Assembly: GCA_049521895.1 (NCBI GenBank)
Contig: JBEKOJ010000001.1
Coordinates: 631,114-695,113, forward strand
DNA: 64,000 nt
Direction of reading: 5' to 3'
DNA from: Candidatus Saccharimonadales bacterium
GTDB lineage: Bacteria; Patescibacteriota; Saccharimonadia; Saccharimonadales; UBA10212
How positions within the stretch are numbered: the first letter of the stretch is position 1; every line of letters starts with the position of its first letter. Under the pieces are notes generated by a model. The model had not been told where the DNA came from and did not search any database. It saw nothing but the letters and a program-made list of their open reading frames with translations. The translations under genes and the position numbers were made by a program. Shown here piece by piece: positions 10,754 to 58,518 of this stretch.

Positions 10754-11334
10754 TTAAAGCGATTATTTTCGATTGTTTTGGAGTTTTGAGCACTGAAGGC
10801 TTTGGGTCATTTCGAGATAAATACTTGGTGAATGATCCAGATAGGCGCCAGCAGGCAAATAAAACCATGGACGAGCTGAATGCCGGGCGGATACCATACG
10901 ACGAATTTGTTAAAGAACTGGCCAGGTTAGCTAATGTTAGCGAACAAACCGTTGGAGAATACCTAAGCGAGAATAAACCCAACGAGCCCCTCTTTGACTA
11001 TATACGTCAAAACCTCAAGCCCCATTACAAAATTGGCATGTTATCTAATGCAGGGGACAATTGGCTTGAAGAATTATTCGAACAAAGGGACATTAAGTTG
11101 TTTGATGATATCGTACTATCTTACAAATTTGGAATGATTAAGCCTCAGTCAGATATCTATACCCTAGCAGTCAAAAGGCTTGGTGTAGCGTCAAGTGAAT
11201 CCATATTTATTGATGATCAGGAAAAGCACTGCGAAGGGGCACGTGCAGCCGGCATACGAGCCATTTGGTACAAGGATTTTTCGCAGTTTAGGTTTGAGTT
11301 AGAAAAAATTCTAGCCCCCAGCGCGGATAACTAG
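10750..11334 (+). CDS. HAD-superfamily hydrolase (subfamily IA)
   Basis: Motif I IIFDCFGVL, motif II MLSNAG, motif IV FIDDQEKHCEGARAAG. Confidence 0.8.
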   Translation: MIKAIIFDCFGVLSTEGFGSFRDKYLVNDPDRRQQANKTMDELNAGRIPYDEFVKELARLANVSEQTVGEYLSENKPNEPLFDYIRQNLKPHYKIGMLSNAGDNWLEELFEQRDIKLFDDIVLSYKFGMIKPQSDIYTLAVKRLGVASSESIFIDDQEKHCEGARAAGIRAIWYKDFSQFRFELEKILAPSADN

Positions 11335-11550
11335 CCTCTGCTTTAAATCACAGGCTTCAATAAGATTCTGGCGCTCCAGCTGGAGAGTGGCCGCTAGGGC
11401 AGAGCCGCGTACACTAACGATCAACGCTCCGCGCTCCAGCTTAACGGTGCACGGTCGCTTGTAACGCCGCATCACATAGTCTTTAACCACTGTTATTTCA
11501 TCCGGCCGCGCGAAGTTTTTCTTGCTCAAAATATCCTGCAGACTGTCCAT
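11311..11550 (-). CDS. DUF721/DciA-like small protein
   Basis: The ORF track extends to 11622 through a heptad repeat array. I prefer the start at MDSLQDIL. The pattern LERGALIVSVRGSALAATLQLERQNLIEA resembles DUF721. Confidence 0.5.
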   Translation of the reverse strand: MDSLQDILSKKNFARPDEITVVKDYVMRRYKRPCTVKLERGALIVSVRGSALAATLQLERQNLIEACDLKQRLVIRAGG

Positions 11551-11569
11551 TACACACTTCCTACGGGGG

Positions 11570-11657
11570 CAATGGACAAATGGACTAATGAACGAATGGA
11601 CAATACATTGAACATTGAACATTGAACATTGAACATTTTGGACTCCATGAGTCCAAG
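11570..11657. repeat. heptad-periodic AT-rich intergenic repeat block
   Basis: CAATGGACAAATGGACTAATGAACGAATGGACAATA followed by (CATTGAA)x4 at 11605-11632 and the hairpin GGACTCcatGAGTCC. Confidence 0.8.
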
Positions 11658-11669
11658 TATAATGGAGGT

Positions 11670-11692
11670 ATGCCGGAGTTACCAGAAGTAGA
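11670..11692 (+). pseudogene. relic duplicate of the fpg start (MPELPEV) with its own -10 box
   Basis: ATGCCGGAGTTACCAGAAGTAGA, against the real start ATGCCCGAACTCCCAGAGGTTGA at 11883. All differences are synonymous. TATAAT at 11658-11663 ends 6 nt upstream. Confidence 0.7.
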
Positions 11693-11849
11693 CCCGGCAG
11701 TAGACTTTCGAGTCAGCTCGTCGTCAGATGAGATATTTATTCGATGTCAGCGCTTAATTAATTGCCTAGGACTTACAGCCACCGATATTCGTGCTGACGA
11801 GCTGAAACTTACATGCAAAGTCGAATAATCTCGAAAGCTCACTGCCGGG
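11693..11849. mobile_element. 157-bp palindromic MITE-like element (family 1, long form) behind a relic fpg start
   Basis: Termini are CCCGGCAGTAGACTTTCGAGTCAGCTCG ... AGTCGAATAATCTCGAAAGCTCACTGCCGGG. They are identical to the termini of the 18186-18342 copy in the opposite orientation. Flanked by TAGA/TAGA. Confidence 0.8.
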
Positions 11850-11864
11850 TAGAGACAGATGGCT

Positions 11865-11873
11865 TGATACAAT
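11865..11873 (+). promoter_or_regulatory. extended -10 promoter of fpg
   Basis: TGATACAAT ends 9 nt before ATG 11883. Confidence 0.5.
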
Positions 11874-11882
11874 ATAGAAACT

Positions 11883-12818
11883 ATGCCCGAACTCCCAGAG
11901 GTTGAAACTGTCAAACAAGGTCTGAGCAAATTTTTGCCCAAGCTTGTAATTAAAGATGTCTGGCACGACTGGCCAAAGGGTTTCCCAAACGCGCCAGCAG
12001 ACGTAGCACGCTTTATGGTGGGTGCATCAATCACAGATGTTAAACGGCGGGCAAAAGTCTTAATTATTGGCCTCTCGAGCGGCTACAGCTTGGTTATCCA
12101 TCTTAAAATGACCGGCCAGCTGGTTTTTGTCGGCTCCGCCGACAAGCTAAAAGCTAACAGCTCAAAGCTTAAAGCTGAAGAAAAGTTTGGTGGTGGTCAC
12201 CCTACAAGTTCATTAGTCAATGATTTACCGGATAAAAGTACAAGGGTAGTTATTGATTTCACCAACGGAGCCAAACTTTTCTTCAACGACCAGCGTAAAT
12301 TTGGCTGGATGCGCCTGCTACCTTCAGTGGAAGTGCCGGAGATTGATTTTATGAAAACCGTCGGTCCCGAACCGCTGGACGATGATTTTACAGCTGGTAA
12401 ATTCATAGAGTGCATCCGTGGTCGCAAAAACAGCCCTATCAAGGCAGTTTTGCTGGACCAAAAAGTCCTGGCTGGAATCGGTAATATTTACGCCGATGAG
12501 TCGCTATTTGCTGCTAAAATCCATCCGTTGACCAAAGCAAGTGCCATCTCTCGCACCAAGCTTGTAGCGTTGCATAATGATTTGCGGTCCATACTACGGA
12601 CAGCCATAAAAAAAGGCGGCAGTACAGATAGGAATTACGTTAACGCCGAGGGCAAAAAGGGCAGTTACATCCAGTTTGCACAGGTGTTTAGGCGGGAAGA
12701 ACAGCCGTGCCCACGCTGCGGTACCACCATCCAAAAAATAAGAGTGGCGGGTAGAGGAACGCATATATGTCCCCGATGTCAGAAAATCAGGGACCAGAAG
12801 ATAAGGGACAAAAAATGA
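11883..12818 (+). CDS. mutM: formamidopyrimidine-DNA glycosylase
   Basis: N-terminal MPELPEVETV with catalytic Pro2. H2TH region LLDQKVLAGIGNIYADESLF. C-terminal zinc finger CPRCGTTI..CPRCQ. Confidence 0.93.
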   Translation: MPELPEVETVKQGLSKFLPKLVIKDVWHDWPKGFPNAPADVARFMVGASITDVKRRAKVLIIGLSSGYSLVIHLKMTGQLVFVGSADKLKANSSKLKAEEKFGGGHPTSSLVNDLPDKSTRVVIDFTNGAKLFFNDQRKFGWMRLLPSVEVPEIDFMKTVGPEPLDDDFTAGKFIECIRGRKNSPIKAVLLDQKVLAGIGNIYADESLFAAKIHPLTKASAISRTKLVALHNDLRSILRTAIKKGGSTDRNYVNAEGKKGSYIQFAQVFRREEQPCPRCGTTIQKIRVAGRGTHICPRCQKIRDQKIRDKK

Positions 12819-14073: not shown

Positions 14074-14448
14074 TTACTTATGGGTTTTGCCGGCAGATTT
14101 AGCGGGTTTCCCGGCAGTAGATCTTCGCGTGGCTTTGCCAGCATCCGCTTTGGCGGGTGGTCGCGAAGGCTCACTGCCGGGTTTGACACCCGCGGCTTTG
14201 GCTTCTCTGGCGATCCTTGATTTATAGCGTGCCGCTTTATTCTTATGGATCACAGCTTTTTTGGCGGCTATATCTATAGCTTTGACCGCTACTAGGGCGG
14301 TTTTGGCTATCTGGTCAGCCTTTTTGCCATCAACAGCTTTGGCAAAGGCCTTAAGCGCATTACGCAAGTCGCGTTTGGTGCGTGCATTGCGGGCACCAGC
14401 CTTGGCTGTCACCTTCACACGTTTTTTAGCAGATTTAATAATTGGCAC
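14074..14448 (-). CDS. rpsT: 30S ribosomal protein S20 carrying an in-frame 72-bp element insertion in its C-terminal tail
   Basis: MPIIKSAKKR..VIHKNKAARYKSR is canonical S20. The tail ..GVK-PGSEPSRPPAKADAGKATRRSTAG-KPAK.. is encoded by the palindromic element at 14110-14181. Confidence 0.93.
   Translation of the reverse strand: MPIIKSAKKRVKVTAKAGARNARTKRDLRNALKAFAKAVDGKKADQIAKTALVAVKAIDIAAKKAVIHKNKAARYKSRIAREAKAAGVKPGSEPSRPPAKADAGKATRRSTAGKPAKSAGKTHK
14110..14181. mobile_element. 72-bp palindromic MITE-like element (family 1, short form) in frame within rpsT
   Basis: CCCGGCAGTAGATCTTCGCG..CGCGAAGGCTCACTGCCGGG. 67/72 nt identical to the reverse complement of the 51908-51979 copy. Flanked by TTT/TTT. 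Confidence 0.85.
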
Positions 14449-14571: not shown

Positions 14572-14670
14572 AAAATGCTCAATGGACAAATGCTCTATGT
14601 TCAATGAATGGCCGATGAGGCGATGTAGCGATGCATTGCTTATTGTTCATTTGTCGCATTTGTCCATTGC
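14572..14670. repeat. heptad-periodic AT-rich intergenic hairpin
   Basis: Perfect 14-bp inverted repeat CAATGGACAAATGC (14580-14593) / GCATTTGTCCATTG (14656-14669). AATG/CATT recurs every 7 nt. CAATGGACAAATG also occurs at 11570. Confidence 0.8.
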
Positions 14671-14688
14671 CTCCGAAAGAGGTACCTA

Positions 14689-16269
14689 ATGGACGCTCCG
14701 GCCAAACAACAAGTAGTAGAGCGCGTTAAACAGGCCACCAATATTTTGGTGACTATTAGTACTGATCCGTCGGTGGACCAGCTAGCGGCTTGTATTGGTT
14801 TAACGCTATTGCTTAACCGCATGGAAAAACACGCCACAGCGGTGTTTTCTGGCCAAGTGCCATCCACGCTGGAGTTTTTGCAACCCGAAAAAACCATCGA
14901 GACCAATACCGACTCCTTGCGTGATTTTATAATTAGCCTGGACAAGAACAAGGCCGACAAGTTGCGCTATAAGGTCGAAGACCAAGTAGTGCGCATCTTT
15001 ATAACACCTTATAAAACGTCATTGAGTGAAAAAGACCTGGTTTTCAGCCAGGGTGACATTAACGTGGAAGTGGTCATGGCGCTGGGGATCAAAAACCGCA
15101 CGCATATAGATGCTGCCATTACCGCACACGGCCGTATTTTACACGACGCCACCGTAATTAACTTAATTGCTGGACCAGATAACCTGCCGCCGCTGGGCCA
15201 AATCAATTGGCAGGAGCCAGGCGCCAGCAGCTTATCGGAAATGCTGGTCAGTATCTCTGAAGCTTTTGGTCCTGGGTTGATAGATAACCAGATAGCTACG
15301 GCCTTTTTGACCGGTATCGTGGCTGAGACCCAGCGCTTTAGTAATACCAGGACTTCTCCCAAGACTATGACTATGGCCGCGCAACTAATGGCTGCCGGCG
15401 CTAACCAGCAGTTGATCGTCAGCAAACTGGAGCCGCCGCAAATGCCGCCGGCTGCCGGAAAACCGGCGCCAAAGCCCCAACCACCCAAACCGCCCATGCA
15501 ACCCAAAGACAAAGGCACCCTGAGCGTTTCGCATGATAAAGACAAAGGTGATAGCTCCGAAGTCGAAATCGCACCAGGCGAAATCCATATCGATGAAAAG
15601 GGCAACTTAACAACCACCAATCAGCTTGAGGACGAAGTTGAGCAACTACGAAAGCTGCGTCAACAGGAGGCATCGGTGCCTGAATCCGTTCCTTTGCCTT
15701 CACCACTGGCTCCGCTGGCAACTGCCGTACCCCCAGAAGCTCCCAAGCCACACGAGCTATTAGACCCCGTAGACCACAAACCGGCTTTTAACTCGCCATT
15801 TACTGCCGATACCCAAGCCGAGTGGATCGATCCTTATAACAGCGTGACAATTGACCCGCTGAGCGGCAATAGCGGCTCGGCGCCGGGCTCGCAAACAGAT
15901 GGTTTTATTGAACCCTCCAAAACAATACAACCCCCGGCTGAGCCGCCAAAAACACCGCTAACGGCGGCTGCTCTAGCAAACCCCGTGGCCGTTGGATCCG
16001 CGCCTGGTAACACTATGCCGGCGGTGGATAATGCCCGCAGCGCGGTAGAAAGCGCTATCGCCTCCAGCCCGTTTGACCCCGCTTTCGCGCCGCCTGTCAA
16101 TTCACTCAATGCTCAAACAATGGGCCCGGAATTGCATGGCTCCAGGAGCGCGAATATTACACCGAGTCTGCAGCTGCCTACTAATGGTGCTCCAGCGCCG
16201 GCTGCCGATATCGCCCCGCCAGCGCCGCCAACGGTACCGCCGCCGCTAGTACCAATAAACGGCCAATAA
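14689..16269 (+). CDS. DHH-family (NrnA-like) protein with degenerate catalytic motifs and a proline-rich C-terminal half
   Basis: The N-terminal 250 aa follow the NrnA layout, but the DHH/DxD positions are substituted (ILVTISTDPSVDQLAA). The C-terminal roughly 270 aa are low-complexity and P/A-rich. Confidence 0.5.
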   Translation: MDAPAKQQVVERVKQATNILVTISTDPSVDQLAACIGLTLLLNRMEKHATAVFSGQVPSTLEFLQPEKTIETNTDSLRDFIISLDKNKADKLRYKVEDQVVRIFITPYKTSLSEKDLVFSQGDINVEVVMALGIKNRTHIDAAITAHGRILHDATVINLIAGPDNLPPLGQINWQEPGASSLSEMLVSISEAFGPGLIDNQIATAFLTGIVAETQRFSNTRTSPKTMTMAAQLMAAGANQQLIVSKLEPPQMPPAAGKPAPKPQPPKPPMQPKDKGTLSVSHDKDKGDSSEVEIAPGEIHIDEKGNLTTTNQLEDEVEQLRKLRQQEASVPESVPLPSPLAPLATAVPPEAPKPHELLDPVDHKPAFNSPFTADTQAEWIDPYNSVTIDPLSGNSGSAPGSQTDGFIEPSKTIQPPAEPPKTPLTAAALANPVAVGSAPGNTMPAVDNARSAVESAIASSPFDPAFAPPVNSLNAQTMGPELHGSRSANITPSLQLPTNGAPAPAADIAPPAPPTVPPPLVPINGQ

Positions 16270-16285
16270 CTGGTCTAAACCAAAT

Positions 16286-16405
16286 TTGACATCTTACAAT
16301 TCACACTTAACATTTATTTAGCATTTGTCATTTCACAGGTGTTAATGCTACTTGAAAGATGTAAAATAAATGCTCAATGATAAATGAAAAGTGCTAAATG
16401 CTTAA
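16286..16405. repeat. heptad-periodic AT-rich intergenic hairpin
   Basis: The left arm is ..ACATTTATTTAGCATTTGTCATTTCACA. The right arm is AGATGTAAAATAAATGCTCAATGATAAATGAAAAGTGCTAAATG. It shares CATTTGTCATTTCACA with 18606 and AAATGCTCAATG with 14572. Confidence 0.8.
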
Positions 16406-17165: not shown

Positions 17166-17297
17166 AAGCCTGAGCGGAGCAGTCGGTAATCCCGCATATT
17201 TTCAGCTCTTTTCGCAATCTGATTGCTAGACTGCTCAAAACCAGGAAAATAAGCGGGACAGGTCAGATTATGGAGCATCAAGATTTTAGTGCTGGGG
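17156..17297. repeat. palindromic repeat family 2, long copy (overlaps the truB stop)
   Basis: CCCCGCTTAAAAGCCTGAGCGGAG ... GGAGCATCAAGATTTTAGTGCTGGGG. The core AATCTGATTGCTAGACTGCTC is shared with the copy at 35533. Confidence 0.65.
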
Positions 17298-17347
17298 TTG
17301 CAAAAATAGCCAAAGTGTGGTAATATTGGTAATATTAAAGAATTAAA

Positions 17348-18164: not shown

Positions 18165-18185
18165 ATGATCACCAGTGAGAAGAAG
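18165..18185 (+). pseudogene. ancestral rpsO start (MITSEKK), now separated from the gene body by the element
   Basis: ATG ATC ACC AGT GAG AAG AAG lies directly after the extended -10 TGCTATAAT (18145-18153). This frame runs into TGA at 18294-18296 inside the element. Confidence 0.7.
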
Positions 18186-18342
18186 CCCGGCAGTGAGCTT
18201 TCGAGATTATTCGACTCATCCATGAGGCTTAGCTCGCTGGTGCACCAATCAATAGCAGTAAATCATACGGTCAAGGATGATGTTTATGTCGAATGATGTA
18301 GTTACAGGAGAAGGCGAGCTGACTCGAAAGTCTACTGCCGGG
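18186..18342. mobile_element. 157-bp palindromic MITE-like element (family 1, long form) splitting rpsO
   Basis: CCCGGCAGTGAGCTTTCGAGATTATTCGACT ... CGAGCTGACTCGAAAGTCTACTGCCGGG. Flanked by AAG/AAG. Same length as the 11693 copy, but the 98-bp core is diverged. Confidence 0.85.
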
Positions 18343-18591
18343 AAGGCCAGGATTATATCCGATCTTCAGGCTCACAAAACCGATACCGGTTCGTCCGCAG
18401 TGCAGGTCGGTATTATGACCGAGCGGATTGCCGAGTTGACGGCGCATATGAAGACGCACAAACACGATTTCGCCGCCCGCCGGTCATTGCTGCAACTGGT
18501 CGGCAAACGCAAACGGCTGCTCAAATATATCGCCGCCCAGAGCGGGGATGAGTACCTGGCTTTGATTAAAAAGCTCGGTATTAGACGCTAG
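18277..18591 (+). CDS. rpsO: 30S ribosomal protein S15; its N-terminus is encoded inside an inserted element
   Basis: ..KARIISDLQAHKTDTGSSAVQVGIMTERIAELTAHMKTHKHDFAARRSLL..LGIRR is canonical S15. The probable start is ATG 18286, 8 nt after AAGGA. The ancestral start at 18165 is separated by the 157-bp element. Confidence 0.9.
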   Translation: MMFMSNDVVTGEGELTRKSTAGKARIISDLQAHKTDTGSSAVQVGIMTERIAELTAHMKTHKHDFAARRSLLQLVGKRKRLLKYIAAQSGDEYLALIKKLGIRR

Positions 18592-18596
18592 CACCT

Positions 18597-18714
18597 TAAT
18601 TTTACATTTGTCATTTCACACTTATCATTTATTTATCAGGTGTCATTTCATCAATGATGAATGGTAAATGTCTAAATAAATGTGAAATGTAATCTGTAAA
18701 ATGTTAAATAATCG
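18597..18714. repeat. heptad-periodic AT-rich intergenic hairpin
   Basis: TACATTTGTCATTTCACACTTATCATTTATTTATC ... GGTAAATGTCTAAATAAATGTGAAATGTAATCTGTAAAATG. The left arm has xxCATTT heptads and the right arm has AAATGxx heptads. Confidence 0.8.
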
Positions 18715-18961
18715 TGGGTGATAGAGCACAGCTTTTCGCGAAAAAAGCGAATGGTTGGACCTTGTCACCCAAAGAAAGGCAAACAACAGATATGGCAGAG
18801 ACCAGTAGGCATAACAGTAACTTTTTTCGTATACGAGCGATTCGCTTGGGCGATGCATTGCAATTACCAGGCGAACAAGGTGTATCCAATGGATACATTG
18901 CGGAGCGGTGTGATTGCAATGCGCGTCCAAAGAATTGCGTAGTAGAAAAGGAGTTGCTGGT

Positions 18962-21097
18962 ATGACTACTATCAATCCGTTTGGCAAAAAAATAATTAAA
19001 GTCAGTACTGACTTTTGTGGCCAGGAGCTCAGCTTGGAAGTAGGGCGTGTAGGCTTTAGGACCAGCGCTTCGGTGGTTGCCCGTTATGGCGATACGGTGG
19101 TGCTAGGCACAGCCATGGTGAGCCCGGAAACTGTTCAGGGGCTGGATTATTTCCCGCTGAGCATTGATTACGAAGAAAAATTTTATGCCGCCGGTAAGAT
19201 TAGCGGCAGCCGGTTTATTAAGCGCGAGGGCCGCCCATCTGATGAAGCGATACTGATTGGCCGTTTGATTGACCGCCCGATACGGCCTCTATGGCCCAAG
19301 GGCTATAGGCACGAAGTACAGGGTGTGGCCACTGTTTTGAGCTTGGACCCGGCATTTAGGCCTGATTCCATAGCAATGATCGTTATGTCCGCCGCCTTTA
19401 TGCTAACCGGCGTACCATTTGAGGGCCCGGTAGCTGGTATACGGGTTGGTTTGGTGAATGGCAAACCCAAGGCTTTTGCCAGCGTAGAAGAATTGGAGCA
19501 AGGCGAACTAGACCTGGTGGTAGCCGGCACCAAAGACGGCGTGATGATGGTAGAAGCTGGCGCTCGCGGGGTCAGCGAGGACGCCGTAGTTGAAGCTATG
19601 GAATACGCCCATAAGGCTATTCAGCCAGCAATTGAACTGCAGAATGAGCTGGTAAAAAAGGTGGGAATAACACCTCAGGAATATAAGCTTATATTGCCCG
19701 ACGAAGATATCCAGAAGCAGGTCAATAAGTGGGTAGAAGGCAAAATGGGCAAAGCCCTGCGTGCCCCGTATCCCGAGCGTAATGATTTAGTCTCCGACCT
19801 GCGCCACAAAATGCACGAGCATTTCCGTAGCCAGCTTGGAGAAGAATATGACAAAGAAGTTAAGGCGGAATGGGATGAGGCCTTTGACATGGCCATCCAC
19901 AAGGACGTGCGGGATGGCATCTTAGATGAAAATATCCGGCCCGATGGCCGCAAATTAACGGAGATACGGCCGCTAAGTAGCGAGGTAGCCTTGCTGCCAA
20001 GGGCCCATGGTTCCAGCCTGTTTACCCGTGGTGTTACCCAGGCATTAAATATTGTTACGCTAGCGCCGCTTTCTTATGCACAAATGGTAGACACCATGGA
20101 ACGTGAAGGTGAACGCCGCTACATGCACCACTACAATGCTCCGGGTTACACCGTTGGCGAGGTGCGCCGTCTGGGAGCCCCAGGCCGGCGTGAAATTGGC
20201 CACGGTTATCTGGCAGAAAAGGCGCTGAGTACCGTTTTACCGACCGAAGCCGATTTTCCTTACACCATCCGCTCGGTTACTGAAATTATGAGCCAAAACG
20301 GCAGCACCTCGATGGCGGCAACTTGCTCCTCGTGCATGGCGTTAATGGACGCCGGTGTACCGCTAAGCGCGCCGGTCAGCGGCATTGCTATGGGCTTGAT
20401 GACCGACGGCACAAAAAATGTTATTTTGAGCGACATTGCCGATGCTGAAGATTTTGCCGGCGATATGGACTTTAAAGTAGCCGGTACTGCCAAAGGTGTT
20501 ACAGCCCTGCAGATGGATATGAAAGTCCACGGATTGTCAGTAGCAGTACTTAAAAAAGCCTTAGAGCAGAGCAGGACCGGCCGGGCGGAGATCCTGCAGC
20601 ACATGCTGTCGGTAATTCCTGAACCTAGAGCCGAGATGAGCCCGTACGCACCACGCGTTGAGGCCATTCAAATTAACCCAGAAAAGATCCGCGAGGTTAT
20701 TGGCAAGGGCGGCGAAACTATCAATAAAATAATTGCTGAAACCGGCGCTGAAATTGATATTAAAGACGACGGCACGGTGATGGTCGCCAGCCCTGATAAA
20801 ACCAGCATTGATGCCGCCATCAAATATATCCGCACGCTGACAGCCGAACCGGAAGTTGGTAAAATATATGAGAACTGCCGGGTCGTAAGCGTTTTAGACT
20901 TTGGCGCCTTTGTGGAAATTATGCCGGGCAAAGAGGGCCTGGTGCACGTCAGCGAGATGAAAGAAGAGCGGGTGGAAAAACCAAGCGATGTGGTCAAAGA
21001 GGGCGATCAAGTAACCGTTAAGCTGATAGCGATTGATGACCGTGGGCGTCTGCAGCTATCCATGAAAGCCGCACAGCGGGAGCTTGATAAGAAATAA
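18962..21097 (+). CDS. pnp: polynucleotide phosphorylase
   Basis: Start at ATG 18962 after AAAAGGAG. Two RNase PH domains, then KH (GKGGETINKI) and S1 (GKIYENCRVVSVLDFGAFVEI). Confidence 0.95.
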   Translation: MTTINPFGKKIIKVSTDFCGQELSLEVGRVGFRTSASVVARYGDTVVLGTAMVSPETVQGLDYFPLSIDYEEKFYAAGKISGSRFIKREGRPSDEAILIGRLIDRPIRPLWPKGYRHEVQGVATVLSLDPAFRPDSIAMIVMSAAFMLTGVPFEGPVAGIRVGLVNGKPKAFASVEELEQGELDLVVAGTKDGVMMVEAGARGVSEDAVVEAMEYAHKAIQPAIELQNELVKKVGITPQEYKLILPDEDIQKQVNKWVEGKMGKALRAPYPERNDLVSDLRHKMHEHFRSQLGEEYDKEVKAEWDEAFDMAIHKDVRDGILDENIRPDGRKLTEIRPLSSEVALLPRAHGSSLFTRGVTQALNIVTLAPLSYAQMVDTMEREGERRYMHHYNAPGYTVGEVRRLGAPGRREIGHGYLAEKALSTVLPTEADFPYTIRSVTEIMSQNGSTSMAATCSSCMALMDAGVPLSAPVSGIAMGLMTDGTKNVILSDIADAEDFAGDMDFKVAGTAKGVTALQMDMKVHGLSVAVLKKALEQSRTGRAEILQHMLSVIPEPRAEMSPYAPRVEAIQINPEKIREVIGKGGETINKIIAETGAEIDIKDDGTVMVASPDKTSIDAAIKYIRTLTAEPEVGKIYENCRVVSVLDFGAFVEIMPGKEGLVHVSEMKEERVEKPSDVVKEGDQVTVKLIAIDDRGRLQLSMKAAQRELDKK

Positions 21098-21098
21098 A

Positions 21099-21317
21099 AT
21101 GGCAAGACAAGATGCCAACCAAGTGAATATGCCGGCGTATCTGCAGTATTGGTGGGCCGGGCTGATTACGGTGATCATATTTCTGGTTATATCTTACGGT
21201 TTTGTGTCCTGGGCCATTAATTCGGGTAGTTTATGGCAGTATGTCTTGGCTATAGTGTTCTTTGTCTGGGCTGTCAAAGTATTCGTTCGGGCGGTGCGCC
21301 GGATTTTTAATCGTTAA
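21099..21317 (+). CDS. small membrane protein (two TM helices)
   Basis: 72 aa from ATG 21099. Hydrophobic segments WWAGLITVIIFLVISYGFV and VLAIVFFVWAVKVFV. Confidence 0.5.
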   Translation: MARQDANQVNMPAYLQYWWAGLITVIIFLVISYGFVSWAINSGSLWQYVLAIVFFVWAVKVFVRAVRRIFNR

Positions 21318-21329
21318 TGTTTTAAAAGT

Positions 21330-21977
21330 ATGACTAAACAATCAACTAACGCAGAGCTTCTTGAGAAGATTAAGGCCGATATTTTGGTCCAGAAAATCTG
21401 TCCAGAACTAGCCGCGGGCGCTACTCAGCTGGTATTTGCTGACGGCAATCCGAACGCGGAGGTGGTTTTTATCGGTGAAGCCCCTGGTAAAAGCGAAGAC
21501 GAACAAGGTTTGCCATTCGTTGGGGCGGCCGGTAAGTTTTTGGACGAACTGTTAGCCGGGATCGGCATGAAGCGCCCCGATGTTTACATTACCAATATCG
21601 TAAAATACCGTCCGCCCGAGAACCGCGACCCTTACCCAGATGAAAAAGTTGCCTTTTTGCCGTTTTTACGCCGCCAACTCGAGGTTATTAAGCCTAAATT
21701 GGTGGTGACGCTTGGCCGCCACAGTATGGACGCCTTCTTGCCGAGCCTGCAGATCAGCCAAGTCCACGGCCAACCCAAAAGGTACAAGGGGCAAGTTTAC
21801 CTACCACTGTTTCACCCTGCCGCCGCTCTTTACAATGGCGGTCTAAGGCAAACAATGGTAGACGATTTTTCACGGATCCCGCGCATTTTAACGCAAATTA
21901 CCCGCGTGCCATCCGCCAAGGCGGAGGTGCGAAGTTCTGCTTCCCAAAGTTCTAAAAAAGCCAACAAATTGCTGTAA
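21330..21977 (+). CDS. uracil-DNA glycosylase, family 4
   Basis: VVFIGEAPGKSEDEQGLPFVGAAGKFLDELL and HPAAALYN motifs. Confidence 0.88.
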   Translation: MTKQSTNAELLEKIKADILVQKICPELAAGATQLVFADGNPNAEVVFIGEAPGKSEDEQGLPFVGAAGKFLDELLAGIGMKRPDVYITNIVKYRPPENRDPYPDEKVAFLPFLRRQLEVIKPKLVVTLGRHSMDAFLPSLQISQVHGQPKRYKGQVYLPLFHPAAALYNGGLRQTMVDDFSRIPRILTQITRVPSAKAEVRSSASQSSKKANKLL

Positions 21978-22050
21978 ATAGTGGAAGCTCCAATTATTAA
22001 TGAAACCAAAGTTTTAATAACTAAATCTAAAAAGGAGAAAAATATTTAAA

Positions 22051-24141
22051 ATGAATCCAAAAAACAACAATCAATCAAGGCGTCCGCGCTCACAGCAGAC
22101 GAATAATTCCCGTAGGCGGAACCCCCAAAAAGATGGAGCAATCCGTAATGTCAGCAGGGGGGCGGCTATACGCGCCCAAAAAATGGCAGTCCAAGACGCC
22201 AACCGCGTAGCTAGCCAGTACTTGGACGCGGCTACTAAGCAAACTGACCAGCCCCGCCTGCCAGCCGGCAGGCCGGGGCGTGCCAATGTAGTGGATGACA
22301 GCCCGCGGCTTAGAATTACTGGCCTGGGTGGTATGGATGGCGGCGGCTCTAAAAACATGATAGTCATTGAATATAAAAACGATGCGATTGTCATCGACTG
22401 TGGCAATGATCTGGGCGTGGATTTGCCGGGCATTAATTATGGCATCGCCGACACTACTTATCTGGATCAAATCAAAAATAAAATTCGGGCTTTCGTAATT
22501 ACCCATGGCCACTTGGATCATATTGGCGGGCTACCACATATTTTGCCCAAGTACAACGTGCCAGTTTACGGTAGCCGCTTTACTATTGGCCGGGTGGAAG
22601 AAATTTTCGAAAATTTTGGGCTGCCAATGCCGGATGGCTTTGAGCTGAAAACAGTCATAATGAACGAAACTACGCACGAGCGTCTAAAAATCGGTGAATT
22701 TTTTGTGGAGTTAGTTAGGGTAACACACTCTATACCAGGTAGTACGGCAATAGTAATAGATACACCGCTGGGCAGAATCATAAATAGCGGCGATTTTCGC
22801 TTTGATTCCAATCCGTTAGACCACGAAAAGACTGACATGAACCGCTTTCAGGAACTAGCGCGCGATGGCGTATTAGTTCTGATGAGCGAATCCACTACTA
22901 CCGAGCGCCCGGGCCGGACGCCGTCTGAATCTACTATCGAGCAAAGTTTCATAGATATCATGAGCAATGCCGAGGGCCGTATCTTTGTCGGCCTGTTTTC
23001 CACCAACATGAACCGCGTGCAGATGATTATCAATGCTGCCGTTCACCATGGCAAAAAAGTAGCTATGGATGGCCGCAGCATGATCAGTACGTTGGAGATG
23101 GCGGTCAGGAACGGCTTCATGAAAATTCCCAAAGGTACATTTGTACCGATATCCAGTGTGGCTAATATGAAGGATGACCAAGTGGTGGTGGTCTGCACTG
23201 GTTCGCAGGGCGAGTCCAATTCGGCATTGGTGCGTATGGCCATGGGCGATCACAAGCACATCCAGCTGAAAGAGCAGGACACCGTGATTTTGTCCAGTAC
23301 GCCTATTCCATACAGTGGTAACGACGCTTTGATTCGTGCCATGACGGACGACATGTTACGCAAAGGCGTGCATGTTTACCGTCACGAAACGCATGACGTA
23401 GATAATGTCGGCCCGCTGCATGTCTCTGGCCACGGTAGCCAGGAAGAATACCGCGAGATGATCGAAATGCTAAAACCCAAGTTTTTCATTCCGGTTTATG
23501 GCGACTATACTGCTAAAAAATACCATATTGATTTGGCTATCCAGGCGGGTGTTCCGCGGGCTAACACGATCAATGCCGAGAACGGCGAAGTCATTAGCGT
23601 CAGCGGCTCTAAGATGGAAAAGGATGGCGAAGTACCGCACGGCACGATTCTAGTGGACCAAACCGGCGCCATCGTCAGCACCGTAGTGGTTAAAGACCGC
23701 GTACTGCTGGCCGAAGAGGGCTTGGTGGCAGTCGTTCTGACTGTCGATAAAAAAACCGGCTCGCTGCTCACCAGCCCGGACATCATCAGCCGCGGCTTCA
23801 TCTACATGAAAGATAACGAGGAGTTGATGAATGCCTTTAGGACAGAACTACGCCGTGCGGTGGTGCAGCGCTTCAAGCGGGTAGATTTGGACCGATTTAA
23901 AGCCGAGCTGCGTGATTACGTCACGCACTTTTTGTACGAGCAGACGCAGCGCAGCCCGATTGTCATTCCGGTGGTCAATGTCATTGGCGGCCGGGTAGAG
24001 AAGGGCAATAACGACCTGCATAAAACTGGTGCTAACGGCCAACCGGTGGCTAAAACACCAGAGGAAATTGCTCTTGAGCAGCAGCGACGCTTCGCGCAGA
24101 TGAGGCAACGTCTGCTGAACCAAGACGCCCGCGTCGACTAG
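22051..24141 (+). CDS. rnj: ribonuclease J with basic N-terminal extension
   Basis: Metallo-beta-lactamase motif ITHGHLDHIGG plus beta-CASP and C-terminal domain. About 80 aa of R/Q/N-rich N-terminal extension. Confidence 0.9.
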   Translation: MNPKNNNQSRRPRSQQTNNSRRRNPQKDGAIRNVSRGAAIRAQKMAVQDANRVASQYLDAATKQTDQPRLPAGRPGRANVVDDSPRLRITGLGGMDGGGSKNMIVIEYKNDAIVIDCGNDLGVDLPGINYGIADTTYLDQIKNKIRAFVITHGHLDHIGGLPHILPKYNVPVYGSRFTIGRVEEIFENFGLPMPDGFELKTVIMNETTHERLKIGEFFVELVRVTHSIPGSTAIVIDTPLGRIINSGDFRFDSNPLDHEKTDMNRFQELARDGVLVLMSESTTTERPGRTPSESTIEQSFIDIMSNAEGRIFVGLFSTNMNRVQMIINAAVHHGKKVAMDGRSMISTLEMAVRNGFMKIPKGTFVPISSVANMKDDQVVVVCTGSQGESNSALVRMAMGDHKHIQLKEQDTVILSSTPIPYSGNDALIRAMTDDMLRKGVHVYRHETHDVDNVGPLHVSGHGSQEEYREMIEMLKPKFFIPVYGDYTAKKYHIDLAIQAGVPRANTINAENGEVISVSGSKMEKDGEVPHGTILVDQTGAIVSTVVVKDRVLLAEEGLVAVVLTVDKKTGSLLTSPDIISRGFIYMKDNEELMNAFRTELRRAVVQRFKRVDLDRFKAELRDYVTHFLYEQTQRSPIVIPVVNVIGGRVEKGNNDLHKTGANGQPVAKTPEEIALEQQRRFAQMRQRLLNQDARVD

Positions 24142-24144
24142 GTT

Positions 24145-24223
24145 GAGGTCCGTCCTTGGAAAAGGATAGATAAAACTTTGTGGTTTTAATTTCTTAACTG
24201 TACCTTTTCCAAGGACGGACCTC
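24145..24223. repeat. perfect 21-bp inverted repeat with 37-nt spacer, downstream of rnj
   Basis: GAGGTCCGTCCTTGGAAAAGG (24145-24165) and CCTTTTCCAAGGACGGACCTC (24203-24223). Confidence 0.85.
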
Positions 24224-24239
24224 TTCACGCCTCAGCCGA

Positions 24240-24269
24240 TTGACAACTGAGGCGTGAATGTGTTATAAT
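24240..24269 (+). promoter_or_regulatory. sigma-70-type promoter of ftsK
   Basis: TTGACA (24240-24245), an 18-nt spacer, then TGTTATAAT (24261-24269). The -35 box lies in the loop of an 11-bp hairpin (24225-24257). Confidence 0.6.
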
Positions 24270-24336
24270 TACAACATTGTGCACGTTCTATTAATTTTCT
24301 TATAAACCTTATAGCTTAAGGTATAATCAATCTGTA

Positions 24337-26538
24337 ATGGCTAAAAAACGCAAACCTGGCCGACCCCCTAAAAAACATAGTGAGCTGGCAAAACCTTCGG
24401 CCAATTTTTGGCGCGGCGCTGGTGCCGTAGTGACTATAGTAGCTGGCGTCGTTTTAGCTTTTGGGGCGATTATTTCGGCGCCGCTGCCACACGATCTCTG
24501 GAATGGCGTGTGGTGGGCCTTTGGAGCAGCAACACTTATGGTGCCTTTGGCGCTAGTTTATCTGGGCGCCTTGAAATTTTTGAGCGAAGACCAACAGATA
24601 CCGCTGGCCAAACTGGCCGGCACCATCTGCCTGCTGGTATTTTCAGCCAGCTGGTTGCAGAGCGCTTTTCTGCAAACTGATGCCGCCACTGGTAACTCAA
24701 TTGGTGGTCACGGCGGCCACGTCGGCCAAGCGGTTGGCAATCTACTGGTAGGGGCGATGGGATGGTTTTTGGCCTCTTTAGTGTTCATTATTTTAACGTT
24801 ATTTGCGATTTTCTTTACCTTTGGTATCGAACCGCGGGTGTTGCTAAAACTGGGTAAATTATTTAGACGCGAAAAGCCCGAAGGCGGTGAAGAAGATCTT
24901 GCCGCCCTGAAAAGTAAGATGAATCCAGGTTTTCAGCTACACGAAGGCGTGCCGGTAGAGCACAGTACGCTAGCACGGGTTTCCTCGCTTCGTAACACTG
25001 CTCAAAGACTCGCGCCGGAAGCTGACCATGCAGCTCTGACTGCCGCCAGCGACCCCGATTGGCAATTTCCGTCGCTAGACTTGCTGAGCCAAAAGCAAGA
25101 TAAGGCCGACCCCGGCAATGTGCAGGAGAACGCTGAAACTATCAAAGAGACTTTTGCCAATTTCAACATCGACGTGGATGTGGAAGGCGCCAGTGTTGGC
25201 CCACGGGTTACACAATATACCATAAAGCCGCCAACAGGGGTAAAACTGACTAAACTAACGCAGCTGGAAGACAACCTCAAGTTAGACTTGGCTGCCCACA
25301 GTATCCGCATGGAGGCACCGATCCCCGGCAAACGCGCTGTGGGTGTGGAGGTGCCTAATGTTAAAGCATCAACCGTTACCATTCGTAGCCTGCTTTCCAG
25401 TCCGGAGTGGAGCGAGTCTCCAAGCAATTTAAGTTTTGCCGTGGGCAAAGACATAGTAGGTAACCCGGTAGTGGCAAATCTGGATACCATGCCTCATCTG
25501 CTGATTGCGGGGCAGACCGGTTCCGGCAAATCAGTCATGATTAATACCTTACTGACCAGCTTGCTATACCGCAATAGCCCGTCGGATATGAAGCTGATTT
25601 TGGTGGATCCTAAGCAGGTGGAAATGACCCTTTATAGAGATATTCCGCACCTGTTGGCGCCGGTTATAAATGAACCCGAAAGATGTATCAGTGCTTTTAA
25701 ATGGGCGATCGCCGAAATGGAGCGGCGCCTGAGAACTTTTGCTGAAGTGGGTACGCGCAACATCCACGAATACAACTCGGTGAAAAGAGAAGAAGGTATG
25801 CCTTACATAATCATTGTAGTGGATGAGCTGGCCGACCTGATGATGATGGCTGCCCGCGACGTGGAAGCCTTGGTGGTGCGCCTGGCAGCCAAGGCCCGGG
25901 CCGCTGGTATCCATCTGGTAATCGCCACCCAGCGCCCAAGCGTAGATGTTATAACTGGCCTGATTAAGGCCAATGTGCCAGCCCGGATCGCTTTTACCAC
26001 CGTGCAGCAGGTTGACAGCCGTACTATCATTGACCAAGCCGGCGCTGAAAAACTGCTGGGCACCGGCGACATGCTATTCTCTATCCCCGAATACGCTAAG
26101 CCCAAACGCTTGCAAGGCGCATTTATCAGTAATGCCGAGACCACTAAAGTTTGCGACTTTTTGCGTGCCCAACGCCCGCCGAGCTATAACGAAGAAGTAG
26201 TCAGCCAGCCGGTGCAGTTAACCGGCCGGGGCAGTATAGTGTCACAGATCGAAGGCGGCGCCGATGACGACATGTGGAAAGACGCCGTATCGGTGGTGGT
26301 CGCCAACCGTAAGGCCAGCACGTCTTTGCTGCAGCGCAAACTGCGCATCGGCTATGGCCGCGCCTCCCGCCTGATGGACATGATGGAAGAGCAGGGCATA
26401 ATCGGCCCGGCCGACGGCGCCAAGCCACGCGACGTGTTGGTCCATAGCGTGGATGAAGTCTTTGGCAGGGAAGAAGAAGAGCCCGCAGAACAGGCTAGAC
26501 ACGATGACGATATCTACGACGACATGCCGGACGAGTAG
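24337..26538 (+). CDS. ftsK: DNA translocase FtsK/SpoIIIE
   Basis: N-terminal TM helices. Walker A GQTGSGKS, Walker B IIVVDELADL. Gamma winged-helix domain LLQRKLRIGYGRASRLMDMMEEQGIIG. Confidence 0.95.
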   Translation: MAKKRKPGRPPKKHSELAKPSANFWRGAGAVVTIVAGVVLAFGAIISAPLPHDLWNGVWWAFGAATLMVPLALVYLGALKFLSEDQQIPLAKLAGTICLLVFSASWLQSAFLQTDAATGNSIGGHGGHVGQAVGNLLVGAMGWFLASLVFIILTLFAIFFTFGIEPRVLLKLGKLFRREKPEGGEEDLAALKSKMNPGFQLHEGVPVEHSTLARVSSLRNTAQRLAPEADHAALTAASDPDWQFPSLDLLSQKQDKADPGNVQENAETIKETFANFNIDVDVEGASVGPRVTQYTIKPPTGVKLTKLTQLEDNLKLDLAAHSIRMEAPIPGKRAVGVEVPNVKASTVTIRSLLSSPEWSESPSNLSFAVGKDIVGNPVVANLDTMPHLLIAGQTGSGKSVMINTLLTSLLYRNSPSDMKLILVDPKQVEMTLYRDIPHLLAPVINEPERCISAFKWAIAEMERRLRTFAEVGTRNIHEYNSVKREEGMPYIIIVVDELADLMMMAARDVEALVVRLAAKARAAGIHLVIATQRPSVDVITGLIKANVPARIAFTTVQQVDSRTIIDQAGAEKLLGTGDMLFSIPEYAKPKRLQGAFISNAETTKVCDFLRAQRPPSYNEEVVSQPVQLTGRGSIVSQIEGGADDDMWKDAVSVVVANRKASTSLLQRKLRIGYGRASRLMDMMEEQGIIGPADGAKPRDVLVHSVDEVFGREEEEPAEQARHDDDIYDDMPDE

Positions 26539-44461: not shown

Positions 44462-44580
44462 ACAATGGATTTCATGTTTAACAGTTTGTATTTAACATTT
44501 ATTGATCATTCTTTACTTAGTCATTGGAAATTAGCAATTGCTAAATTAATGGCAAATAGTAAACGGCAAATAGTAAACGC
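44462..44580. repeat. heptad-periodic AT-rich intergenic hairpin
   Basis: Centre palindrome TTAGCAATTGCTAA. 14-mer GGCAAATAGTAAAC x2 (44551-44578). TTTAACA heptads on the left arm. Confidence 0.75.
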
Positions 44581-47617: not shown

Positions 47618-47727
47618 AATTCACATTTAACAATTCACATTTAACAATTATTGATTATTTTTCATTTCATCAATGCCAAATGCCAAATGCCAAATTAATG
47701 GTAAATGGTAAATGGCTAATGGTAAAT
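47618..47727. repeat. heptad-periodic AT-rich intergenic repeat block upstream of pilC
   Basis: AATTCACATTTAAC x2 (47618-47645), (AATGCCA)x3 (47672-47692), and GGTAAAT GGTAAAT GGCTAAT GGTAAAT (47700-47727). Confidence 0.85.
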
Positions 47728-49640: not shown

Positions 49641-50501
49641 ATGATCGCCATCATTTTGATTGTTCTCGGCCTATGCCTGGGCAGCTTTGTTAATGCCCTG
49701 GTCTGGCGCCTCCATAAGCAGTTGATAGTTGATAGTGAGAAGTTTATAGATAAGAAAACTACAAACTACAAACTACAAACTACTAACTACTCTGTTTTGC
49801 ACGGGCACTCTATGTGTCCCAACTGCGGCCATGAACTGGCGCCGCGCGACCTGGTGCCGGTTTTTAGCTGGTTATTCTTGCGTCGTCGCTGCCGTTACTG
49901 CGGCCTACCAATTTCCTGGCAATATCCACTGGTTGAGGCGGCCACGGCGGGTGTGTTTGTAGTTTCTTACTACTATTGGCCAGGCGGTCTAGTAGGAGCA
50001 GGGCAGTGGCTGCTATTCATAACTTGGCTAGCAACGTCCGTAGGCTTGATGGCGTTGTTGATATCTGATTTACGCTATATGCTGTTGCCCAGTAAAATTC
50101 TTTATCCAGCGTTCATTATTGCCGCCGCTGGCCGCTTGGGCTATATCTTGTTCTTCTCCAACAACATAGCTCACAGCTCTGAGCTCTTAGCTCTCAGCTT
50201 GTTGGTCGCCAGCGGGGTGTTTCTACTGCTGTTCTATGTCTCTTCCGGCCGCTGGATCGGCTTTGGCGATGTGCGCCTGGGGCTAATTACCGGTATATTA
50301 CTGGCCACCCCGGCCAAGAGTTTTTTGATGGTTTTTTTGGCCTCAGTACTAGGTACTCTATTCGTGCTGCCGGCTGTTGCCAGTGGCCGTACTAAGATGA
50401 CTAGCCGCATAGCGTACGGCCCGTTTTTAGTTGTTGCTACCGGTATCGTGCTGCTGTTTGGCCAATCATTTATTACTTGGTACCAAAACCACCTCTTCTA
50501 G
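49641..50501 (+). CDS. pilD: prepilin peptidase (A24 family)
   Basis: Cys motifs CPNCGH..CRYCG. Polytopic, with the GFGDVRLG catalytic Asp motif. Confidence 0.9.
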   Translation: MIAIILIVLGLCLGSFVNALVWRLHKQLIVDSEKFIDKKTTNYKLQTTNYSVLHGHSMCPNCGHELAPRDLVPVFSWLFLRRRCRYCGLPISWQYPLVEAATAGVFVVSYYYWPGGLVGAGQWLLFITWLATSVGLMALLISDLRYMLLPSKILYPAFIIAAAGRLGYILFFSNNIAHSSELLALSLLVASGVFLLLFYVSSGRWIGFGDVRLGLITGILLATPAKSFLMVFLASVLGTLFVLPAVASGRTKMTSRIAYGPFLVVATGIVLLFGQSFITWYQNHLF

Positions 50502-51446: not shown

Positions 51447-51863
51447 ATGAAAATATTTGCCAAAACCGGCGTAGGTCAGCGTGGCGACACCATTATAGAG
51501 GTGTTAATAAGTATGAGTATCCTGGCGCTAGTGTTGACCGGTGCTTATGTATCCACCAGCCGCAGCTTACAAGACGGCACGGATTCGTCTGACCGCCAGC
51601 AAGCCTTGGCGCTGGCCGAGCAACAAATAGAATTTATTAAAAGCAACCCATCCGCTTACCAACCGCCAACCAATTCGAAAACTAATAGTTTCTGTATTGG
51701 TAACGATAGTAGCATACAAACCGGCGCGAGTTGTACGTTCAACAGCCAGTACACCATGACAGATACTTACAGCGGCGGCCTATTTACTATTGTGGCTACT
51801 TGGCCCAGCGCTGTAGGGTCCGGCGGCCAAAGCCAACTAACACTTTATTACCGCGCCCTATGA
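51447..51863 (+). CDS. minor pilin / pseudopilin
   Basis: ..GQRG then DTIIEVLISMSILALVL (Glu+5). Confidence 0.7.
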   Translation: MKIFAKTGVGQRGDTIIEVLISMSILALVLTGAYVSTSRSLQDGTDSSDRQQALALAEQQIEFIKSNPSAYQPPTNSKTNSFCIGNDSSIQTGASCTFNSQYTMTDTYSGGLFTIVATWPSAVGSGGQSQLTLYYRAL

Positions 51864-52642
51864 AAAACACCCACTCTCCACTCTCCACTCTTCACCTAAG
51901 AGGCTTCCCCGGCAGTGAGCCTTCGCGACCATCCACCTTAGTGGATGCTGGCAAAGCCACGCGAAGATCTACTGCCGGGTTCACCATAGTTGAGCTGCTG
52001 CTGGCTACCTCTGTTTTCTCGATAATTTTGCTGGCAGCTTTAGCCAGCTTTTTGCAGGTGGGCCGGCTATTTTATAAAGGCGTATCATTGACCAACACTC
52101 AGAATACCGCTACCCAAGTACTTAATGATGTCGCTCACAGTCTACAGACTTCCAGCACACTTTCTCTGCCAACCACTGCCAATGGCTACACCTATACATG
52201 CATTGGAAACGCCCGTTATACCTACACTACCACTAATATCAGTGGCCAGCAGGTAGCGGTGGCGGCTAACCTGTCGGATTCACCCAACTATGGTAGTGGA
52301 GCCAACGGCGGCAACTTTGGCCTGCTTAAAGATACCTTACCAGGCAGCTCCGGCTGCGCGGTCCCATGCTGGCCCGCCAGCAGCTGTAGCAACGGCCAAG
52401 TAGTGTTTAGTAATCCGGTAGAGATGCTGGGCGACCAAATGCGCGTGGCGACTTTTAGCATAAGTAGTGTATCTGGCGTCCAAAACCTCTATAATATCAA
52501 AATGGTAGTGGCTTATGGGGATAGTTCGGTTATGAGCTTTAGTAATCCCGGGCAACCTGTGTGCATAGGCAATTCGCAAAACCAGGCATTTTGCTCGGTT
52601 GTCAACCTCTCTACTACTGTTTTTCAGGGGGTGCGTTCATGA
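51860..52642 (+). CDS. minor pilin / pseudopilin with repeat-expanded leader peptide
   Basis: The ATG at 51860 forms an ATGA overlap. Leader MKNTHSPLSTLHLRGF-[PGSEPSRPSTLVDAGKATRRSTAG]-FTIVELLLATSVF. The bracketed residues are encoded by the 72-bp element. Confidence 0.8.
   Translation: MKNTHSPLSTLHLRGFPGSEPSRPSTLVDAGKATRRSTAGFTIVELLLATSVFSIILLAALASFLQVGRLFYKGVSLTNTQNTATQVLNDVAHSLQTSSTLSLPTTANGYTYTCIGNARYTYTTTNISGQQVAVAANLSDSPNYGSGANGGNFGLLKDTLPGSSGCAVPCWPASSCSNGQVVFSNPVEMLGDQMRVATFSISSVSGVQNLYNIKMVVAYGDSSVMSFSNPGQPVCIGNSQNQAFCSVVNLSTTVFQGVRS
51908..51979. mobile_element. 72-bp palindromic MITE-like element (family 1, short form) in frame in a pseudopilin leader
   Basis: CCCGGCAGTGAGCCTTCGCGACCATCCACCTTAGTGGATGCTGGCAAAGCCACGCGAAGATCTACTGCCGGG. 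Flanked by TTC/TTC. Confidence 0.85.
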
Positions 52643-58329: not shown

Positions 58330-58402
58330 CCCCGCACTAAATCCTGAGCGGAGAAGAGAGGAAATACCTCTATTTCGGAGCATCAAGATTTTAGTGCCGG
58401 GG
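58330..58402. repeat. palindromic repeat family 2 copy
   Basis: CCCCGCACTAAATCCTGAGCGGAG..GGAGCATCAAGATTTTAGTGCCGGGG. Its arms match the 17156 copy. Confidence 0.65.
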
Positions 58403-58518
58403 TACAACATAAGCATATTATATAGCGGGCAGGGAATAGTAGATAGAGTTTGGCTTGTTGAGCAAAAAACGTATTCAATTTGCATCCAGTCGTTACATCT
58501 GTTACAATCCTTGATAAC

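Follow-up and report, generated by a model that had tools for sequence, protein, structure and literature searches.

Rickettsia palindromic elements (RPE) are short palindromic repeats that lie in frame in unrelated coding genes and add an extra peptide to their products in a reduced genome (PMC10969869). In-frame MITE fusions are known beyond Rickettsia and have been reviewed (PMC10969869). ERIC, BOX and Correia elements, QMITE1/2 of Coxiella, and the MITEs of Anabaena are small and non-coding, with inverted termini, direct-repeat flanks and stem-loops; they exist as full-size and small versions, with occasional in-frame fusions to host ORFs (PMC10969869; PMC5896051). The 72-bp sequence described here, from the gene for ribosomal protein S20 of a Candidatus Saccharimonadales bacterium, is probably a non-autonomous mobile DNA element of the MITE type, belonging to Saccharibacteria and behaving like RPE. 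The analysis covers a stretch of 64,000 nucleotides, referred to as the window, with a G+C content of 49.1%. The literature on Saccharibacteria, Patescibacteria, and the Candidate Phyla Radiation (CPR) was searched, and no description of such elements was found, in line with the initial annotation, which was aware of no equivalent in this lineage. The family is apparently undescribed, and apparently common in a lineage of very small genomes.

The likeness to RPE, which had been proposed from the sequence of the window, is apt as a description of behavior, as palindromic sequence is inserted in frame in S20, GyrA, Jag, and a prepilin. It is an analogy, and the two are compared by behavior, not by sequence. 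The host phylum differs, being Saccharibacteria here, and the in-frame form has 72 nt, whereas that of RPE has about 150 bp. Unlike RPE, the present elements have a 20-bp terminal inverted repeat, duplications of 3–5 bp, and long forms that are mostly intergenic, and the interior is predicted to form a three-way junction or interleaved helices, not a simple long hairpin. With ERIC, BOX, Correia, QMITE, and the Anabaena MITEs they share small non-coding sequence, inverted termini, direct-repeat flanks, stable predicted stem-loops, size versions, and in-frame fusions. However, there is no known sequence similarity to any of these, and the host lineage is new. Furthermore, the size classes found here share their termini only, and copies at orthologous loci are conserved far above the synonymous level.

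The rpsT gene is located on the minus strand at 14074–14448 and encodes an S20 protein of 124 aa, with a match to Pfam PF01649 at residues 4–82. The element within it, S1, is a short form of 72 nt at 14110–14181 on the minus strand (94.5 bits, E=1e-23, with R1, a covariance model built from short forms only). In gene sense it reads CCCGGCAGTGAGCCTTCGCGACCACCCGCCAAAGCGGATGCTGGCAAAGCCACGCGAAGATCTACTGCCGGG and encodes PGSEPSRPPAKADAGKATRRSTAG, which is 24 extra residues beyond the S20p domain, in the Lys/Ala/Pro-rich tail. It is flanked by TTT at 14107–14109 and 14182–14184, a target-site duplication that is the AAA codon for Lys in gene sense. The 72 nt and the 3-bp duplication together make 75 nt, or 25 codons, and keep the reading frame. 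The ORF is continuous through the element, as expected from the in-frame addition of 24 codons with TTT flanks that the initial annotation had described. The corresponding empty site is seen in the relative L128, which has GGT GTT AAA CCC AGC AAA where the window has GGT GTC AAA[element]AAA CCC GCT AAA.

The reverse complement of S1 is identical at 67 of 72 positions to a second short form, S2, at 51908–51979. All five mismatches, at element positions 25, 28, 31, 32, and 35, fall in a span of 11 nt that belongs to an apical hairpin; under uniform mutation, the chance of this is about (11/72)^5 = 8e-5. The arms of 23 and 33 nt are exact and have no other occurrence in the window (shuffled expectation 0.00). 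The hairpin, CATCCAC-CTTA-GTGGATG, is perfect in the copy at 51908. Positions 28 and 35 show a compensatory change, pairing as A:T in that copy and as G:C in the one in rpsT, and positions 31 and 32 are loop changes. On recomputation, the identity, the central placement of the differences, the compensatory pair, and the two loop changes were all as first claimed. A detail absent from that account is the change of T to C at position 25, which leaves the rpsT copy with a C·A mismatch. Paired changes can also arise without selection, through template switching within quasi-palindromes, so the compensatory pair alone is no proof of a functional fold.

S2 (plus strand; 95.6 bits with R1) lengthens a type IV prepilin-like leader in frame, directly before the G|F cleavage site, and is flanked by TTC, a Phe codon, at 51905–51907 and 51980–51982. 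The host gene extends over 51860–52642 on the plus strand, and the Pfam N_methyl motif of its product is displaced to residues 35–61. The product reads MKNTHSPLSTLHLRGF-PGSEPSRPSTLVDAGKATRRSTAG-FTIVELL. The terminal codon of the element, GGG, provides Gly at −1 and, with the duplicated TTC, restores the G|F cleavage site. The gene is part of a type IV pilus cluster with PilM, PilN, PilB, PilT, and PilC, and a prepilin peptidase is found at 49641–50501. Among 99 homologues, the insert is found only in the window's own cluster, and the leaders of the others have about 13 residues. The empty site is present in L127, a 67%-identical orthologue, as CTG GCC GGG TTT ACC ATT. In public gene calls, the pilin begins at a GTG within S2 (51938–51979), giving VDAGKATRRSTAG|FTIVE, a normal, positively charged leader of 13 residues. 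S2 may thus provide the pilin's working start codon, beyond lengthening the leader. The proposal that the element was recently active holds for this copy, which is absent in 98 of 99 homologues. It does not hold equally for the S20 copy, which is probably older, since a copy at the same site is found in the diverged relative L123.

The same terminal inverted repeat also bounds two long forms of 157 nt in the window. L1, at 11693–11849 on the minus strand, is inside the remnant of the original mutM start and is flanked by TAGA at 11689–11692 and 11850–11853. L2, at 18186–18342 on the plus strand, is inserted after codon 7 of rpsO and is flanked by AAG at 18183–18185 and 18343–18345. L1 and L2 have identical ends of 31 and 33 nt but agree at only 82 of 157 positions overall, and the variable interior is 32% identical. 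The relative L123 shows synteny to the window (FtsK, RNase J, UDG, PNPase, S15, TruB, S20, holA, mutM) and contains neither long form. Its rpsO reads ATG ATA ACC AGT GAG AAA AAG GCT, where the window has ...GAG AAG AAG[157 nt]AAG GCC, and its mutM start directly follows TATATAAT-AGGGGT-GTG. With L127 and L128, empty sites are thus known at the DNA level for all four copies of the window. Orthologous copies are found of L1 in L082 and of L2 in L081.

The long forms are accompanied by changes at the ends of genes. The rpsO gene (18165–18591) is split after codon 7, and the S15 ORF appears to restart inside L2, at an ATG at 18277 or 18286. An AAGGA-N8-start arrangement for this restart is kept in the orthologous copy of L081, with GTG as the start codon. 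Gene callers give S15 a length of 101–104 aa, compared with 88 aa in the uninterrupted gene of L123. At mutM (11658–11910; also 3200–3450 in L082), the original start, with TATAAT, GGAGG, and ATGCCGGAGTTACCAGAAGTAGA, is interrupted by L1, and a second, functional start, MPELPEVET, is found at 11883. Between the two starts, 7 of 24 nt differ, six of them synonymously. In L121 (820–1050), the C-terminus of a sigma factor, RKLHEYLQ*, is also encoded twice, with synonymous differences, at the insertion of a long form. These duplicated gene ends may have arisen by rescue through recombination with an intact foreign allele. Comparison of about 11300–11657 in the window with 2850–3205 in L082 shows that the homology breaks off precisely at the −10 box in the original promoter of mutM and that the upstream genes differ, so a rearrangement breakpoint adjoins the element-bearing segment.

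How widely is the family distributed? A metagenome scan with one terminus gave 44 contigs, of which 39 have complete elements (71–90, 155–160, and 226 nt), all with the terminal repeat. Each of these contigs has one or two copies, and the 64-kb window has four. Reference-genome contigs were scanned with the pattern CCCGGCAGT..., which gave 77 matches, approximately the number expected by chance. Only one of these is real, an in-frame copy in gyrA of a Ca. Saccharibacteria MAG (L044); however, the pattern fixes G at position 4, where most members have A, and hence it underestimates the taxonomic spread in reference genomes. The long forms of the window, the MAG copy, and the complete elements on the 39 metagenome contigs are further copies of the kind for which the initial annotation had proposed to search; all the checks it suggested bear out its interpretation. 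R1 detected every long form (E 1e-7 to 1e-12), and its search of the window and 247 kb of related contigs gave no additional copies. No match to the element was obtained in the viral contigs and phage records searched. Single-repeat matches in L080, L089, L113, and L114 were rejected as chance matches in high-GC organisms. A doubled profile of the 24-residue peptide gave two matches in 5.8 billion proteins, at E-values that are too strict for 24 residues.

The terminal inverted repeat has 20 bp and consists of CCCRGCAGT, an asymmetric tetranucleotide (GAGC at one end and RUCU at the other), and YTTCGMG. The interior is variable yet always self-pairing, and different size classes have these termini in common and unrelated interiors. 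The 71–90 nt forms have two small hairpins, the 155–160 nt forms have two interleaved helices of 9–10 bp, and the 226-nt form has two long arms. This last variant, seen in L106 (3361–3586) and L108 (7667–7892), has a P2-like helix with compensatory changes, TTATCCCGAC/GTCGGGATA, and a second helix, GTCCGCC/GGCGGAC, that is in series with it, not interleaved; in this variant, the equivalents of P2 and P3 of the 157-nt forms are nested. The long forms have stop codons in most frames and are mostly intergenic, and many copies of the family are non-coding. The intergenic copies are divided about 7 sense to 5 antisense, so there is no strand bias.

Direct repeats of 3–5 bp flank 33 of 40 unique insertions (3 bp, n=16; 4 bp, n=15; 5 bp, n=2), while the chance of a direct repeat of at least 3 bp is about 1/64 per site. 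Including the terminal C or G extends 14 of the 16 duplications of 3 bp to 4 bp, so the staggered cut is probably 4 bp, in A/T-rich sites that are often followed by C. The family has several of the features by which MITEs are recognized: lengths of 71–226 nt without a transposase ORF, terminal inverted repeats of 20 bp, and target duplications together with empty sites. A parent insertion sequence with matching termini, which would be a further such feature, was not found in the DNA scanned.

S1 and S2 are predicted to fold into one and the same three-way junction, with a long terminal helix that has an internal loop, a 7-bp hairpin, and a small GGC-AAA-GCC hairpin. The predicted RNA folds have energies of −38.7 and −41.9 kcal/mol, with z of −6.2 and −7.1 against shuffles; as DNA, z is −7.4 and −8.1. 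In 15 short forms, 96.8% of the cells in the three helices are paired, and 10 of 23 pairs are compensatory (31 cells), which none of 500 shuffles equaled, while slid controls gave 33–46% pairing. The covariation supports the helices, in agreement with the structure-preserving variation first noticed between two copies. In 19 long forms, P1, P2, and P3 are 95–99% paired (98.1% overall), and 8 of 38 pairs are compensatory; P1 helices are 95.6–99.2% paired across copies. P2 (TTATTCGAC/GTCGAATAA) and P3 (CAGCTCGTC/GACGAGCTG) of the long form interleave. On this model they would be either a pseudoknot or alternative pairings, and interleaved helices are unusual for a MITE. In the long form, the two variable linkers do not pair consistently from copy to copy.

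In the long form, columns 10/157 and 12/155 are invariably G·U, and some hairpins have C(UUCG)G loops. The ratio of G·U to A·C is 14:1 in P3, 3:7 in P2, and 1:7 in the short form. Assignment of an RNA folding strand was tried and abandoned, as these counts are contradictory and the orientation to genes is unbiased. The mixed counts and the lack of strand bias fit a DNA-level element. In Rfam searches of the window, only two tRNAs reach the gathering threshold; there is no match at E<=10 over the long form, and around the short form there is only noise, below 13 bits. The interiors of the long forms have no promoter or terminator signal above chance.

The 72-nt form occurs in frame, in one orientation and phase, in GyrA at two different sites (L044 and L094), in the Jag/R3H tail (L078 and L092), in the pilin, and in S20, and 9 of 10 coding copies use the same frame. 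The S20, GyrA, Jag, and prepilin ORFs run unbroken through the element, which, on the reading of these sequences, is the frame-keeping type of insertion known for RPE. In that orientation and frame, the 25 codons are stop-free, hydrophilic, and probably disordered. Among the best 120 of 3383 S20 homologues, at least eight carry inserts, and most of the 120 are without; the DNA was confirmed for four carriers. The insert follows AAG[VI]K in P0001 and P0006 and is at other tail positions in P0012, P0013, P0024, and P0033. The insertion point is nearly always K|KP, or AAA|CC. P0028 has an 87-nt copy in reverse orientation, with a different peptide. S20 tails have thus received the element repeatedly, in independent events. 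The tail of P0002, an S20 homologue of 117 aa, reads AAGVK-PAKTIPARPSRPIAKTPARRSPAK-KPAK and resembles a decayed, shortened element peptide at the site used in the window; if it is a decayed copy, this looks like erosion of an insert into ordinary coding sequence.

What is the constraint on the sequence within these genes? The ends of the peptide are conserved in the coding copies, P-[GS]-S-E ... S-T-[AT]-G. In nine in-frame copies, however, the variability is 22, 23, and 23 at codon positions 1, 2, and 3, and it is 0.42 in the loop and 0.06–0.11 in the stems. Equal variability at the codon positions, with the loop exceeding the stems, shows the encoded peptide to be a by-product. The same peptide in unrelated proteins (GyrA, Jag, prepilin) always coincides with palindromic DNA; thus, it is the DNA that spreads, not a protein motif. 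What is constrained is the nucleic acid, in its termini and pairing, and not the encoded peptide.

Copies at orthologous loci were compared with the neutral sites of their neighboring genes. At mutM, the window and L082 (MutM 78% identical) share 143 of 157 positions of the element (0.96 in the blocks and 0.86 in the variable part), compared with 0.41 at four-fold third positions. At rpsO, the window and L081 agree at 0.93 in the element blocks and 0.68 in the variable part, compared with 0.42 at all S15 third codon positions. At the S20 locus, S1 and the copy in L123 are identical at 60 of 72 positions, compared with 0.45 at all rpsT third positions and 0.58 at four-fold-type sites. Neutral decay would be expected of a fixed MITE copy that is purely selfish, and does not explain this conservation at the same locus. 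Selection could account for the excess, as could gene conversion between copies or recent exchange across lineages.

Conservation above that of neutral sites keeps alive the reading that the element is a functional, structured nucleic-acid module, used by the host or by a dedicated protein, and that its insertional spread is secondary. It might then be an element for RNA processing or stability, a riboregulator, or a folded-DNA recognition site. We consider this unlikely. It would account for structural blocks at 0.93–0.96 when synonymous sites are at about 0.41–0.46, for perfect ends of 31 and 33 nt around interiors that are 32% identical in L1 and L2 of one genome, for covarying helices with a pseudoknot-like P2/P3 in the long form, and for the invariant G·U pairs, the predominance of G·U in P3, and the C(UUCG)G loops. 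However, the intergenic copies are unbiased in orientation to transcription, the G·U and A·C counts indicate opposite strands in different helices, there is no Rfam match, and promoter or terminator signals are not beyond chance. Furthermore, inserting into coding regions and duplicating the target is how a transposon behaves, and gene conversion or recent lineage exchange could also explain the conservation. It is likewise doubtful that we are dealing with a mobile 'handle plus cargo' module, in which a 20-bp terminal helix is joined to internal helices that are under purifying selection at fixed loci. If true, this would be a domesticated or self-maintaining structured RNA/DNA element of Saccharibacteria, for instance, a signal for processing or regulation, or a substrate for an undescribed recombinase that recognizes structure.

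Spread by a RAYT (HUH, Y1) transposase via single-stranded DNA, as a REP/BIME-like palindrome and not as a cut-and-paste MITE, is very improbable. REP/BIME are also palindromes, abundant and extragenic, in which structure is kept over sequence; the present elements are hairpin-rich, with an interior conserved in structure more than in sequence and a GTAG tetranucleotide in the terminal repeat (CCCRGCA-GTAG-AC), and a DDE transposase was not found. However, this GTAG forms part of the P1 stem instead of standing at the 5′ end of a stem-loop, and target-site duplications, which are not expected from such a process, are present at 33 of 40 insertions. REP/BIME are recognized as units of 20–40 nt with a 5′ GTAG/CGTC tag, no target duplication, and a RAYT, and this combination is not found here. 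In contrast, the elements are longer, at 72–226 nt, have true terminal inverted repeats of 20 bp and target duplications, and occur inside genes, and no RAYT was seen; a Y1 transposase domain is absent from the roughly 36 Pfam-scanned ORFs of the window and from the Pfam list for the 20-kb rpsT region. It is hardly credible that selection has favored the 24 residues as a protein module with a function in S20 and elsewhere, with the palindromic DNA incidental. The use of one frame in nine of ten coding copies and the conserved peptide ends would agree with this, but the variability is equal at the three codon positions and tracks stem versus loop, numerous copies are non-coding, and the reverse-orientation S20 copy gives a different peptide. 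Moreover, the insert occurs in unrelated host proteins, in low-complexity tails or in a leader that is cleaved off.

The preferred reading is that of a non-autonomous MITE. Insertion occurs by a short staggered cut, giving an A/T-rich duplication of 3–5 bp, mostly 4 bp, often in the context AAA|CC. The Lys/Pro/Ala-rich tails of saccharibacterial proteins are written as AAA CCN repeats, and insertions land between codons there. Stop-free, in-frame 72-nt copies are therefore retained in the tail of S20, in GyrA and Jag, and in the leader of a prepilin. Mobilization would be in trans, by a putative DDE-type transposase that is encoded elsewhere and makes a cut of about 4 bp. Presence and absence were compared between species, and activity may continue today. 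A Pfam scan of about 36 window ORFs of at least 150 aa detected no DDE transposase, only a XerC/D-like recombinase (57392–58309); the ORFs at 18914–26538 were covered just by a precomputed Pfam list for 20 kb around rpsT. No autonomous partner was detected in the window, and 356 kb of related DNA yielded neither such a partner nor a DDE transposase; terminal-repeat pairs 300–4000 nt apart were only combinations of separate copies or chance matches. The CC termini and the duplication of 4–5 bp recall IS1380-type insertion sequences, which we take as a lead only; no transposase or full-length element with these termini was found here.

Other repeats are present in the window. A 28-nt intergenic motif, GGAGCATCAAGATTTTAGTGCYGGGGT, occurs at 17269–17298 and 58374–58403 with 26/27 identity, and its reverse complement, CCCAGCACTAAAATCTTGAT, shares 14 of 21 positions with the end of the element; the motif may be a solo or degenerate end, or may belong to a related family. 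Another repeat is present in two inverted copies, at 11545–11582 and 14657–14694, which lie 3 kb apart and bracket mutM, holA, and rpsT. Its unit is a hairpin, GTCCATT...AATGGAC, followed by CAAATG, and the two arms are 82% complementary. A/T-rich blocks of ACATT/CATTTA-like units, for example cattgaacattgaacattgaacatt, are seen in both orientations in several intergenic regions (11600–11645, 16284–16325, 18599–18709, 44469–44510, and 47618–47711). The nucleoside diphosphate kinase (NDK) ORF at 58480–59100 has 206 aa from a TTG start, and the Pfam NDK match is split in two; the start may have been placed too far upstream, or an insertion may be present.

The genomes of Saccharibacteria and other CPR bacteria, of about 1 Mb, are thought to be streamlined, and yet an abundant miniature mobile element is found here in essential, conserved genes (S20, S15, GyrA), whose products bear it as additional peptide. 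CPR proteins are thus still being remodeled by selfish DNA, for which Rickettsia has been the main earlier example. For annotation, the element accounts for odd extensions and start codons in ribosomal proteins and pilins, and for strain tracking it provides a presence/absence marker. The strong conservation of inserted copies, together with the modular and folded interior, prompts the testable question of an acquired function.
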